This document shows positions 3,007 to 17,382 of a stretch of 32,000 bases of DNA, piece after piece. Numbering within the stretch: the stretch's first letter is position 1; each line of letters begins with the position of its first letter. The stretch is from Staphylothermus marinus F1 (lineage in GTDB: Archaea; Thermoproteota; Thermoprotei_A; Sulfolobales; Desulfurococcaceae). The notes under the pieces are model-generated. The model was not told the DNA's origin. It worked only from the letters and a program-made list of their open reading frames with translations, and did no database searches. The position numbers and the translations under genes were made by a program. The stretch lies in contig NC_009033.1 of assembly GCF_000015945.1 (NCBI RefSeq), forward strand, positions 630,001 to 662,000. The letters run 5' to 3'.

Positions 3007-3113
3007 TGGGCCCGCGGGGATTTGAACCCCGGACCTCCGCCTCTCTCAACGGGCCTATACATATTCATACCGCTCGTAAGGGCGGCGTCCTAACCAGGCT
3101 AGACGACGGGCCC
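3007..3113 (-). tRNA. tRNA-Val (anticodon UAC) with ~32-nt intron at canonical 37/38 position; CCA not encoded
   Basis: Reverse complement folds as GGGCCCG/CGGGCCC acceptor, GUCU..GGAC D-arm, CCGCC/GGCGG anticodon stem with loop CUUACG[intron]A, and T-arm CGGGG-UUCAAAU-CCCCG. GC-rich island in AT-rich DNA. Confidence 0.85.
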
Positions 3114-3250: not shown

Positions 3251-3338
3251 TGGTGCGGGGGGTGGGATTTGAACCCACGCAGGCCTACGCCATCGGGTCC
3301 TAAGCCCGACCCCTTTGACCAGGCTCGGGCACCCCCGC
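3251..3338 (-). tRNA. tRNA-Leu (anticodon UAG), class II with long variable arm, 3' CCA encoded
   Basis: Reverse complement: GCGGGGG acceptor, anticodon stem UCGGG/CCCGA with loop CUUAGGA, variable arm UGGCGUAGGCCUGC, T-arm GUGGG-UUCAAAU-CCCAC, then CCCCCGC-A-CCA. Confidence 0.9.
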
Positions 3339-3420
3339 ACCATTATATTGTTAGTTTATTGATTGGGGTTTAAAGGTTTAGTTTAAGATTTTATTTTCTT
3401 TGTAGTATAGGAATGTGTGT

Positions 3421-12941: not shown

Positions 12942-13064
12942 TGGTGCGGGGGGTGGGATTTGAACCCACGCAGGCCTACGCCAGCGGATCTCCCCTGGGC
13001 CGAACCACTATATGTTGGCCCTGTCTTGAGTCCGCCCCCTTTAACCTGGCTCGGGCACCCCCGC
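12942..13064 (-). tRNA. tRNA-Leu (anticodon CAA), class II, with 35-nt intron at 37/38, 3' CCA encoded
   Basis: Reverse complement: GCGGGGG acceptor, anticodon stem GCGGA/UCCGC with loop CUCAAG[intron ACAGGGCC...CCCAGGGGAG]A. The variable arm and T-arm are identical to the tRNA-Leu at 3251-3338. Confidence 0.85.
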
Positions 13065-13195
13065 TTTTCTCCATTATTTTTACTGGTCTATAATCCCATT
13101 TTAATCCTTACCTTTATCGATGATATTGTTTATTTATGGATTTATACAGTATTCACTTGTCGAGGAGTATATGTGTTTTTACATGGTGGATTACT

Positions 13196-14242
13196 GTGGA
13201 ACTACTATATACAGTTAATCCAGGTATTGAGGATATTGCGTCTGAAGAGATTAGAGCTGAGCTAGGCGGTGTTACTAGTTTTGAAAATATGAGTGGGCAT
13301 GTATATCATGTTGTTGATAATGTTAGTTTTGAAGCTATTTATAGGCTTAGAAGCATTAATCGCGCATTCATCTTGTTGTTTAAGAGCAGAATTGGTTCTC
13401 GAACAAATGATTTAATAAAGCTTAGGGAAGAACTGTTTTCTTCTCTTGAAACAATTCATTACTATATAACTCCCTATACATCATTTGCAGTTGATACAGA
13501 ACGTCTAGGTAGTCACGAATATACATCTATGGATATTTCACGTATTGTTGGAGAAATAATTATTAAGAAAGTTGAAGAGAAAACAGGTATTAAGCCAGTT
13601 GTTAATTTGAGAACACCACATATCATAGTCCACGTATTTGTGAAGGATGAGAACTTCTTTCTCGGAGTTTCGCTAACAGGTTCTAGGAGTCTTCATAGGA
13701 GAGGATATAGAATATATGATCATCCAGCAGCTCTTAAACCCACACTAGCATATGCAATGCTAACATTATCAGGTACGAGAGATAAACAAGTAATTGTTGA
13801 TCCAATGTGTGGTGGGGGAACTATTCCTATAGAAGCAGCTCTTCTCCATGAAGAAGCATACATTTATGGATACGATCGAAACCCGAGACATATTAGGGGA
13901 GCGAAACTTAATGCATATGCTTCAGGTGTCTATGGAAAAGTGGTTTTTGGTGTATGGGATGCTAGGAGATTACATGAGATCTTCGATGAACAAGTGGATC
14001 ATATAGTTAGTAATCCACCATACGGCATCCGCTACGGGGATCCAGTAGCTATTAGGAAACTATATAGAGACTTCTTGGATTCAACATATAAATCATTGAA
14101 ACCAGGTGGTCGATTAACTATTATAACAACAGAGTATAATTATGTGTTGAATAAAGCTAACTATATAGGTTTTAGAGTAGTCCATAAGAGAACAGTTCAA
14201 CATGGAGGATTATATCCTAAAATAGTTGTTTTAGAAAAATAG
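13196..14242 (+). CDS. THUMP-domain RNA (guanine-N2) methyltransferase, UPF0020/Trm14-like
   Basis: SAM motif VIVDPMCGGGTIPIEAA and catalytic NPPYG, with a THUMP-like N-terminal half. I prefer the in-frame GTG at 13196 (VELLYTVNPGIEDIA...) over track start 13136, whose extra residues look non-native. Confidence 0.75.
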   Translation: MELLYTVNPGIEDIASEEIRAELGGVTSFENMSGHVYHVVDNVSFEAIYRLRSINRAFILLFKSRIGSRTNDLIKLREELFSSLETIHYYITPYTSFAVDTERLGSHEYTSMDISRIVGEIIIKKVEEKTGIKPVVNLRTPHIIVHVFVKDENFFLGVSLTGSRSLHRRGYRIYDHPAALKPTLAYAMLTLSGTRDKQVIVDPMCGGGTIPIEAALLHEEAYIYGYDRNPRHIRGAKLNAYASGVYGKVVFGVWDARRLHEIFDEQVDHIVSNPPYGIRYGDPVAIRKLYRDFLDSTYKSLKPGGRLTIITTEYNYVLNKANYIGFRVVHKRTVQHGGLYPKIVVLEK

Positions 14243-14352
14243 TGGTTGCCCGTGCTTTATGATGCACGGGCTTCCCCCTCTTGGGTTGGGGCTTCATCCC
14301 TTCACGGAGGGGGCTATCGGGGCTCCACATAGACCACCTAGAGCCCTTCATC
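14243..14352 (-). ncRNA. Candidate structured small RNA module (unclassified); strand unresolved, minus preferred
   Basis: About 60% GC island (66/110 by my count) in AT-rich DNA. Three stems: GCCCGTGC/GCACGGGC (14248-14255 / 14264-14271), CCCCCT/AGGGGG (14274-14279 / 14308-14313) and GGGCTC/GAGCCC (14320-14325 / 14341-14346). The palindromic TATA-like box at 14384-14391 lies upstream in the minus sense. Confidence 0.35.
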
Positions 14353-14383
14353 TGCGTTTTATTAACCATTATATTATAGGGGG

Positions 14384-14391
14384 TTTATAAA
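14384..14391. promoter_or_regulatory. Palindromic TATA-like box TTTATAAA inside repeat copy 1
   Basis: A perfect TTTATAAA conserved in both repeat copies. In the minus sense it sits about 30 nt upstream of the GC-rich module. Confidence 0.4.
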
Positions 14392-14569
14392 GCGAACGCA
14401 TAAACATGAACACTACAAAACTATTATAGTTTTCATAATTTCCAAAACAACCATAATATCCAAATAAGCAAATAGTCTAGAAAATAGTAAAAGGTAAGTT
14501 TAAAATACTCGGTTAAAATCTACAAAAACGATAAAGAATAATGGTTGAATGATTAGGAGATGATGATAT

Positions 14570-16175: not shown

Positions 16176-16697
16176 AGATTATCTTTCATGTTTACCGTGA
16201 TAGTATGGGATGTGGGGCCTGGGAATATATTCTACACCCGGCCTTTGCTGTATTGCTTGCGGATATAGGTTCATTAATAAATAGACTTCTTGAGGAACAT
16301 CTGTTTTAACAGGCAACCCCAGCTCTTTAGCGTGTTCAACTGTTATTGGGTAATCATGTGTATAATATCCTTCCGTAAGCTTTTTTGCAACTTCAAAAGC
16401 TTTCTCCTCCGGCATCTTATCCTTTAATAACTGAACTATAAACTCCTGTATTTCACGTAGAGCTTTCTCCGCAATATCTGCATAAATTAATGTATCGTCG
16501 CTTGCCTTATCCCCTTTCATCTTAGCTATTTTTATCAAGCTAGGTGCTGGGAATGTTCCCTTAGGTGTTTGTAGCTGGGGATCTAGTGGTCCTAGAACAG
16601 CGTCTGGATCCATTATTGTTTCATCAGCAGCTAACGCTATAAGGGTCCCGCCGCTCATAGCATAGTGTGGTACAATAACTATTTTCTTCCCCTTATG

Positions 16698-16807
16698 TGG
16701 TTGCCCGTGCTTTATGATGCACGGGCTTCCCCCTCTTGGGTTGGGGCTTCATCCCTTCACGGAGGGGGCTATCGGGGCTCCACATAGACCACCTAGAGCC
16801 CTTCATC
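16698..16807 (-). ncRNA. Candidate structured small RNA module (unclassified), second copy
   Basis: Identical to 14243-14352 with the same three stems. Confidence 0.3.
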
Positions 16808-16838
16808 CGCATTTCATTAACCATTACATTATAGGGGG

Positions 16839-16846
16839 TTTATAAA
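16839..16846. promoter_or_regulatory. Palindromic TATA-like box TTTATAAA inside repeat copy 2
   Basis: Conserved counterpart of 14384-14391. Confidence 0.35.
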
Positions 16847-17382
16847 GCAAACCCAACAACCATAACCCTTCTCAAGACAACCATAATTTTCATAGTTCCC
16901 TAAATAACCATAGTCTCTAAATAAGCGAATAGTCTTTTCAGAGCCATAGCTATTTGTGAAGCTGCAAGAACTAATCCTCCGGGTGTGTGGAGGATTAAAG
17001 CTATTGGTTGATTCTCTGGAGTACTACGTATTGCTCTCAATACTGCTTCAGAATCCTCTATATCGATAAATCTATACATTGGTATTCCTAAGAAGCCTAT
17101 TCGTTCCTATCTATGTATCATTGTTATTACTCTCCAACCATATTTCTTCTCCATGCCTCGTATGATCTTCAACCTAGCACTTTGAAGAGACTTGTATTGT
17201 AGTTGTGGATGAATTATTAAATATAATAGTATTAGCCAAAACAGAAAACTGATTATGTCACCATAACCATCCATGTTCTCACCCTTGATAATCTGGGAAA
17301 AACCTCTACCGAGAAGGTATATGCGGGTATATCAATAAATATTTAGTTTAACAAATAGTGTTTCGGCATTGGTGAAAAATAT

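Follow-up and report, generated by a model that had tools for sequence, protein, structure and literature searches.

The scaffolds of omega-RNAs, the guide RNAs of TnpB, are about 100–150 nt long, and many omega-RNAs overlap the 3′ end of tnpB. In insertion sequences (IS) of the IS607 family, TnpB accompanies a serine-recombinase TnpA, and the ends use short subterminal motifs on double-stranded DNA (PMC6188088). Palindrome-associated transposable elements (PATEs) come from TnpB-bearing transposons of the IS200/IS605 type, and are represented by HqIRS of Haloquadratum (PMC3119063) and by the PATE-like elements of Geobacillus stearothermophilus (PMC10055086). Protein-less elements retaining IS605-type ends are known in archaea (PMC3119063), gene-less derivatives that retain the guide RNA and depend on TnpB in trans have been described in bacteria, and PATEs "often encode omega-RNAs", which TnpB uses in trans (PMC10055086). 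At the right ends of Sulfolobus tnpB elements, two hairpins are located near the 3′ end of the scaffold (PMC10640517). Here, we compare with these systems a repeat found in a 32,000-nt stretch of the genome of Staphylothermus marinus F1 (positions 630,001–662,000 of NC_009033.1), which we call the window and whose own numbering is used below. The repeat, 233–235 bp in length, is almost certainly a mobile non-autonomous element of the MITE (miniature inverted-repeat transposable element) or PATE-like kind, and its GC-rich end is a candidate omega-RNA scaffold.

The mobile elements of the same strain were described in the genome paper (PMC2678158; Anderson et al., 2009, BMC Genomics 10:145). The paper reports five "IS607-family" elements, one of them with a truncated first open reading frame (ORF). 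The other four are closely similar one-ORF elements of the TnpB type (Smar_0083, Smar_0767, Smar_1150, and Smar_1546); our literature search found no other paper naming these loci. The genome paper also reports a putative MITE with 14 copies of ∼260 nt, some truncated, which is flanked by inverted repeats, resembles the DNA upstream of the four one-ORF transposase genes, and interrupts two genes.

The two copies of the repeat in the window have the same orientation and align with blastn E = 9e-83. Copy 1 (14243–14475, 233 bp) lies right behind the ORF of a THUMP-domain methyltransferase, 94 nt 5′ of the start codon of uL16/L10e, and copy 2 (16698–16932, 235 bp) is within a minus-strand gene of an SDH/ClpP-type protease, between the codons AGA (Arg) and CAT (His). 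A blastn search of one copy against the window yielded neither a third copy nor a fragment. The copies differ very unevenly along their length. The GC-rich module at one end (14243–14352 and 16698–16807) is identical at 110 of 110 positions and has 60% GC, compared to 36% in the window. The next 50 nt are 84% identical, with five transitions within the first ∼45 nt, and the last ∼75 nt, the AT-rich tail, are 73% identical and contain indels. As the differences number 0/110 in the module and 28/125 in the remainder (Fisher p = 7e-9), this contrast is not due to chance.

An earlier note, made from the bare sequence, had described this repeat, and most of what it described holds: the direct repeats starting at 14243 and 16698, the identical first 110 nt with ∼60% GC, the following ∼50 nt with five transitions and a conserved palindrome TTTATAAA, the diverged tail with indels, and the AACCATA motifs with the complementary TGGTTG at the opposite terminus. 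It had placed the ends at 14478 and 16935. The repeat finder pairs 14242–14414 with 16697–16869, and the alignment carries the similarity to about the ends given in the note; still, the last TCT is flanking sequence shared by chance, and the true ends are 14475 and 16932, as defined by an empty site in other strains and by intact homologues of the interrupted gene.

The empty site is seen in two of the three Logan contigs that carry the neighbouring uL16 gene (L001, L002, and L003). In L001 and L002, the sequence at the site of copy 1 is ...GAAAAATAT|TCTAGAAAATAG..., while the occupied site in the window reads ...GAAAAATAG[TGGTTG...CAAATAG]TCTAGAAAATAG, and the gap between the THUMP and uL16 genes is 82 nt in these contigs compared to 327 nt in the window. 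Otherwise, the two contigs differ from the window by 20 substitutions over ∼3.5 kb. In L003, the site is occupied and identical to the window. Since the sites in L001 and L002 are empty, copy 1 is a 233-bp insertion younger than the divergence of close strains, and the element has been active recently. Copy 2 is older than the strain split, as the insertion is found in L001 too. It breaks the protease sequence ALK R|H KGKK exactly, whereas all seven of the seven aligned homologues read ALKRH(K/P/R)G(K/R)K unbroken, and an intact syntenic protease gene in another contig (L007) reads AAG AGG CAT at this position. Removal of the 235 bp restores the target exactly, with no base duplicated or lost. 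The mobility proposed in the earlier note is thus demonstrated both by the insertion polymorphism between strains and by the interrupted gene.

The element inserts as a discrete unit at GT, without terminal inverted repeats or target duplication. The dinucleotide GT (AC on the minus strand) is the only sequence common to all four junctions, at 14242–14243 and 14475–14476 in copy 1 and at 16697–16698 and 16932–16933 in copy 2, and is a candidate 2-bp crossover core. Beyond this shared GT, neither copy shows a target-site duplication when its junctions are set against the empty site (copy 1) or the reconstructed target (copy 2). No terminal inverted repeats were found at the tips: TGGTTG at one tip faces subterminal CAACCA motifs, and the tail tip ...AAGCRAATAG has no inverted partner. 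The minus-strand 5′ flanks, TCTAGAC and AAAAGAC, have AGAC in common (2/2 sites); in the strains lacking copy 1, A stands in place of the final C. Insertion 3′ of a fixed motif of 4–5 nt is expected of PATEs. At the junction of copy 1 (14242/14475, corresponding to L001 1289–1290), the occupied allele has G and both empty alleles (L001 and L002) have T. This G may be either an older polymorphism that created GT or a donor-derived base, as could result from exchange across a mismatched core.

Breaks of the Logan contigs fall within the module, which is what a repeat with many copies is expected to cause. In addition, one Logan contig of 21 kb has its start inside copy 2 and its end ∼21 kb past that copy, outside the window, in a tRNA gene (L006 18440–18500) and not in a further copy of the element, and short-read assemblies of the S. 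marinus genome break at the 3′ halves of tRNAs as well as at the MITE.

The element is short, non-coding, multi-copy, and polymorphic for presence and absence, as are classical MITEs, from which it differs in lacking inverted repeats at both tips and a duplicated target site. A protein search with the translated module returned only two matches, the hypothetical proteins Smar_0453 (minus sense) and Smar_0403 (plus sense), both from S. marinus F1; together with the two copies in the window, this gives at least four copies. The host of the published MITE is the same organism, as uL16 and Dph2 encoded in the window exactly match ABN69736.1 and ABN69737.1 of S. marinus F1. We consider it very likely that the repeat belongs to the published 14-copy family, because this is the sole repeat family in the paper, at least four copies exist, assemblies break at the repeat, a gene is interrupted, and one copy would measure ∼263 nt. 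The published family, too, is short, non-coding, multi-copy, associated with inverted repeats, found to interrupt genes, and judged recently active (PMC2678158). On the other hand, the copies in the window measure 233–235 bp and not ∼260, the protease gene is not one of the two MITE-disrupted ORFs named in the paper, and neither an RNA nor the missing target duplication nor the hairpin module rich in GC is mentioned there. The element was very probably known since 2009, and its presentation as something new in the earlier note does not stand, since a 14-copy putative MITE resembling the DNA beside TnpB-type ORFs had been reported. The published link of this MITE to TnpB-type elements also comes close to an outcome that the note itself had named as unfavourable, that is, the module being a fragment of a larger known IS.

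Three stems in the module were recovered by both the repeat finder and folding. Hairpin 1 (14248–14271) consists of the stem GCCCGTGC-N8-GCACGGGC (arms 14248–14255 and 14264–14271), a perfect 8-bp palindrome located 5 nt from the GC-rich tip in both copies. Hairpin 2 (14274–14313) has a 7-bp stem CCCCCTC/GAGGGGG (14274–14280 and 14307–14313), 1 bp longer than the CCCCCT/AGGGGG described earlier, around a small inner hairpin. Hairpin 3 (14320–14346) has the stem GGGCTC/GAGCCC (14320–14325 and 14341–14346) and a 15-nt loop.

The Smar_0453 and Smar_0403 copies were read by back-translation of the peptides, in which silent changes are invisible. In both of them, all three main stems are kept, and no stem-breaking substitutions, which would have spoken against the stems, are seen. 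The changes lie in the middle region of the element, within the internal loop of hairpin 2 (in the minus-strand fold), and in hairpin 3, where the substitutions and a 1-nt indel, the latter in the Smar_0403 copy, are in the loop or inner pairs and the outer 6 bp are kept. The Arg-to-Asn change of the Smar_0453 copy leaves the 7-bp stem of hairpin 2 untouched and lies within its internal loop (minus-strand fold); in the plus-strand fold, one of the two altered bases is engaged in a minor inner pair. In the Smar_0403 copy (P0139), the loop of hairpin 1 appears from the peptide to be ∼28 nt longer, with both stem arms kept. The extra loop is composed of TTTTGG repeats resembling the element's own tail inverted, and the whole copy would measure ∼263 nt, matching the "approximately 260" of the genome paper. 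The module is the only tightly constrained part of the element. Its invariance against the drifting tail, and the stems kept while loops vary in the two other copies, support selection on the module as a folded nucleic acid, in agreement with what had been proposed from the two copies in the window.

Beyond the module, a conserved palindromic TTTATAAA (14384–14391 in copy 1 and 16839–16846 in copy 2) is a candidate archaeal TATA box of ambiguous orientation. In the minus sense, it begins 45 nt upstream of hairpin 3. The box is part of an internal inverted repeat of 19 nt (GTGGTTGCCCGTGCTTTAT/ATAAAGCAAACCCAACAAC), which is imperfect and spans both module and box. We also observed a loose likeness between the promoter region of a tRNA-Leu gene (3344–3378, minus strand), CTTTAAACCCC...ATATAATGGT, and positions 14355–14393 (minus strand) of the element, CTTTATAAACCCCC...ATATAATGGT, which may well be chance in AT-rich DNA.

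The middle region and the AT-rich tail of copy 1 (14353–14475) contain direct AACCAT(A) motifs at 14364 and 14449, and copy 2 has them at 16819, 16858, 16879, and 16906, all on the plus strand. These 2–4 motifs per copy, spaced by ∼27 nt in the tail, are candidate transposase-binding subterminal repeats, and CAACCA is found inverted at the GC-rich terminus. In the 468 bp of both elements, we counted AACCAT six times, compared to 21 times on the plus strand of the remaining 31.5 kb, a ∼19-fold enrichment. A tail-end palindrome, AAAACTAT/ATAGTTTT, is present in copy 1 only, 42 nt from the tip.

Movement of the element resembles conservative site-specific insertion at GT by an enzyme acting in trans. 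Like IS607 elements, among them the archaeal ISC1926 (PMC6188088), it lacks terminal inverted repeats and target duplication, has several short motifs inside the ends (here direct copies close to one end and an inverted one at the opposite tip), and has, as the site of exchange, 2 bp that are the same in donor and target. Moreover, all IS elements of S. marinus were assigned to IS607 by the genome paper. However, IS607 elements are expected to have GG at the termini and in the target, while the element has GT at all four junctions; its flank is AGAC and not the G-rich transposon-adjacent motif (AGGAG or GAGGG) reported for most IS607 TnpBs; and the sole tnpA reported for F1 is truncated (PMC2678158). 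PATEs resemble the element in several ways: they have neither terminal inverted repeats nor target duplication, they have a palindrome near a terminus, they are akin to TnpB-type elements, and they are mobilised in trans; PATE-like elements are reported to carry omega-RNAs needing TnpB from elsewhere. Unlike PATEs, the element has a palindrome near one terminus only, the other end having direct AACCATA repeats, and the genome paper reports no Y1 (IS200-type) transposase in F1 and assigns the parents to IS607, not IS605. Because the core is GT and not GG, and because the near-terminal palindrome is found at one end only, we assign the element neither to IS607 nor to PATEs. An IS110-type element with a bridge RNA was considered and rejected: it is alike in having a 2-bp core and no inverted repeats, but no such transposase is reported in the F1 genome paper.

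Searches for known relatives of the element gave no matches. Rfam 15, run on the whole window at gathering thresholds and, with E ≤ 10, on a 3-kb portion and separately on the element, yielded only two tRNAs and two chance hits, and thus no match of the element to tRNA, C/D, H/ACA, SRP, RNase P, riboswitches, or introns, in line with the failure of the earlier note to recognise any known RNA class. ARAGORN found nothing at the element, viral scans and blastn against plasmids and phages found nothing similar to it, and scans of genome contigs with the terminal hairpin pattern and the module peptides gave no useful match in a collection from which the F1 genome appears to be absent. Exact look-ups of the proteins predicted from the element's ORFs, and of Smar_0453 and Smar_0403, returned no record; one metagenome match was rejected as a chance bacterial terminator hairpin.

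The module may be a TnpB guide-RNA scaffold read outward on the minus strand, to which we assign a probability of about 45%. In the TnpB omega-RNAs, or right-end element RNAs (reRNAs), of ISDra2 and of Sulfolobus islandicus SisTnpB1 (PMC10640517), a structured scaffold of ∼110–125 nt ends at the transposon boundary, the hairpins are near the 3′ end, and the scaffold is conserved relative to its surroundings; a guide would likewise be supplied by the flank here. Read on the minus strand, which is our assignment, the module stops (...GCACGGGCAACCA|) at the element boundary, as located by the empty site, with 5 nt left after hairpin 1, which corresponds to the geometry of an omega-RNA, although to its geometry only. 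There is no T-run between the TATA-like box and the element boundary on this strand, and the AGAC shared by the 5′ flanks lies where a transposon-adjacent motif would be expected. The published link of the family to TnpB-type elements also speaks for a guide RNA. If the module is RNA, the most likely class is this known one.

Under this reading, the three-hairpin module would be a right-end omega-RNA scaffold inherited from a TnpB-bearing parent, while the AACCATA repeats of the AT-rich tail and the inverted CAACCA at the other tip would form the cis site for a transposase acting in trans. With the internal TTTATAAA box as promoter, the minus strand would yield an RNA that runs past ...CAACCA(C)| into the flank, which would give the guide. 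TnpB might then use this RNA in trans to re-cut vacated sites (5′-AGAC plus flank), by which the element would be kept in place. The element differs from the described systems in having no adjoining tnpB and a promoter-like box of its own, with no detected overlap with a TnpB frame and no sequence or covariance-model match to described families. The fullest version, in which the MITE is a self-contained, promoter-equipped guide-RNA gene without a protein that takes its guide from its own flank and borrows TnpB from the four one-ORF elements, is tentative and somewhat doubtful. A bolder variant, in which the tnpB elements have the module at their left (upstream) end, read outward opposite to the tnpB strand, which would be a new guide-RNA layout, seems unlikely.

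Several observations weigh against a guide RNA. The genome paper puts the similarity upstream of the tnpB-type ORFs, whereas omega-RNAs lie downstream of them. No frame of the module matches any TnpB C-terminus in a protein search of a database that included the F1 proteins; this makes an overlap with the ORF less likely but is compatible with a location in the 3′ untranslated region. At E ≤ 10, the element alone has no match in Rfam, including RAGATH-18, HEARO, and IS605-orfB, the presence of which in Rfam we take from the literature and not from the output of the tool. The TATA-like box is palindromic, neither side of it has a clear transcription factor B recognition element (BRE), and the module folds equally well on both strands (−51.6 and −51.3 kcal/mol); fold energy, G-U pairs, and promoter context are all uninformative about the strand of the module. 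In addition, AGAC is shared by two sites only, the crossover dinucleotide is GT in place of the GG typical of the IS607 family, and the identity of the published MITE with the element in the window is no more than very likely. The literature search found no paper linking Staphylothermus with TnpB. Finally, a run of five T starts 4 nt past the boundary of copy 1 and would cut the guide short. The earlier note had counted this run as part of the small-RNA gene, but it is flanking sequence of the THUMP gene (GAAAAATAG) and is absent at copy 2, and therefore it is not a part of the element. Hence, of the minus-strand promoter layout proposed in that note, the box is present, but its palindromic form, the lack of a good BRE, the equal folding of the strands, and the location of the T-run in the flank weaken the argument for its strand and its role as a promoter.

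Many of the same observations would fit a plain MITE with no guide RNA, in which the module is the left-end, upstream non-coding region of the one-ORF TnpB-type elements. It could act as DNA, in transposase recognition or as a read-through barrier, or as the leader of the parent transcript, and its identity in the two copies would result from recent copying or gene conversion and not from selection on RNA. This alternative is possible, although on balance we doubt it. The similarity reported in the genome paper is upstream of four transposase ORFs, and the module, as the most conspicuous part of the element, is the part likeliest to have been picked up there; the missing match to a TnpB C-terminus, the absence of Rfam matches, and the ambiguous strand all agree with it. 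However, a block of 110 nt with three hairpins far exceeds the needs of known IS605 or IS607 ends, and the candidate binding motifs sit in the tail. The stems are kept while the loops vary, even by an expansion of ∼28 nt, which points to a folded single strand. Besides, copy 2 predates the strain split and copy 1 is younger, and their tails are very different while their modules are identical, which recent copying alone hardly explains. A further possibility, a cellular or otherwise new small-RNA gene unrelated to TnpB that travels on a mobile cassette and has a function of its own, for example as a regulator or antisense RNA, would account for the structured, GC-rich stretch of ∼110 nt with a TATA-like box suitably spaced ahead of it, for the lack of a match to known RNA families, and for the stronger constraint on the module than on the tail. 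Still, it is improbable: an insertion that varies between strains and a gene broken by another are the behaviour of a transposon, the genome paper linked the family to IS elements of the TnpB type, the scans that were run found no relative outside S. marinus, unlike what is expected of a conserved cellular RNA, and the terminator-like T-run is found at one copy only.

The exact restoration of the protease frame by removal of 235 nt, together with copy 2 being sense to the protease mRNA for a minus-strand module, could also suggest an intron-like element spliced from host transcripts, either at an archaeal bulge-helix-bulge motif or by IStron-like self-splicing. We regard this as very improbable. 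Two 3-nt bulges with a 4-bp helix cannot be drawn across the junctions of copy 2, the best register giving 4/8 pairs, there is no group I or II match in Rfam, copy 1 is outside any ORF and antisense to the neighbouring gene, and the interrupted protease gene also has a nonsense mutation, as in a dead gene; the bulge-helix-bulge intron was accordingly rejected. A small protein is the least credible explanation, close to negligible. ORFs of 43–50 amino acids cross the module on both strands, and two copies are annotated within Smar_0453 and Smar_0403, but open frames are expected of a sequence with 60% GC, and the protein search found no homologue outside S. marinus. As the 1-nt indel in the hairpin 3 loop of the Smar_0403 copy shifts every reading frame, so that no frame is conserved across copies, the module is non-coding. 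Overall, the observation in the earlier note is confirmed and sharpened, while its reading as a small-RNA gene of an unknown class is only partly supported: the element has neither an Rfam match nor a conserved ORF or intron motif, and its stems are kept in two further copies, but a small-RNA gene is not established.

Each copy coincides with a change in the gene in which or next to which it is inserted. The THUMP-domain methyltransferase gene (13136–14242, plus strand) has its stop codon TAG (14240–14242) at the junction of copy 1, and the T-to-G change at this junction also makes this stop; in the empty-site strains, the ORF is four codons longer (...LEKYSRK*). The gene of the SDH-family Clp-fold serine protease (16179–17274, minus strand) is a pseudogene with two lesions. 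It is split by copy 2, which inactivated it, and carries a CAG-to-TAG nonsense change at 17104–17106, reading MIHR*E in the window and MIHRQE in seven of the seven aligned homologues. No transposase or TnpB gene is present in the window.

Elsewhere in the window, we observed a second tRNA-Leu gene (12942–13064, minus strand; anticodon CAA), interrupted behind the anticodon loop by an intron of 35 nt. Its two halves are 86–96% identical to the tRNA-Leu at 3251–3338, and it was missed by ARAGORN and by the Rfam gathering search. A 107-nt Rfam tRNA match (53 bits) at 3007–3113 (minus strand), long enough to contain an intron, was not reported by ARAGORN.

In terms of bookkeeping, what resembled an RNA gene of unknown kind is very probably a transposon family already noted in the genome paper. 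Locally, the element has killed a protease gene, coincides with a THUMP ORF end four codons short of that in related strains, and is polymorphic between strains, and it has been active recently even though the sole recognisable transposase gene that the genome paper reports for F1 is truncated. If the module is indeed a TnpB guide RNA, it would provide a scaffold both compact (∼110 nt) and heat-stable, taken from an organism growing near 90°C, and the element would be a clean natural guide-only parasite of TnpB, relevant to the study and engineering of these nucleases. Among hyperthermophilic crenarchaea, a guide-only MITE would be the first of its kind, and its scaffold would differ from those of the described families and its GT/AGAC rule from that of IS607; this would extend a known principle and not found a new one.

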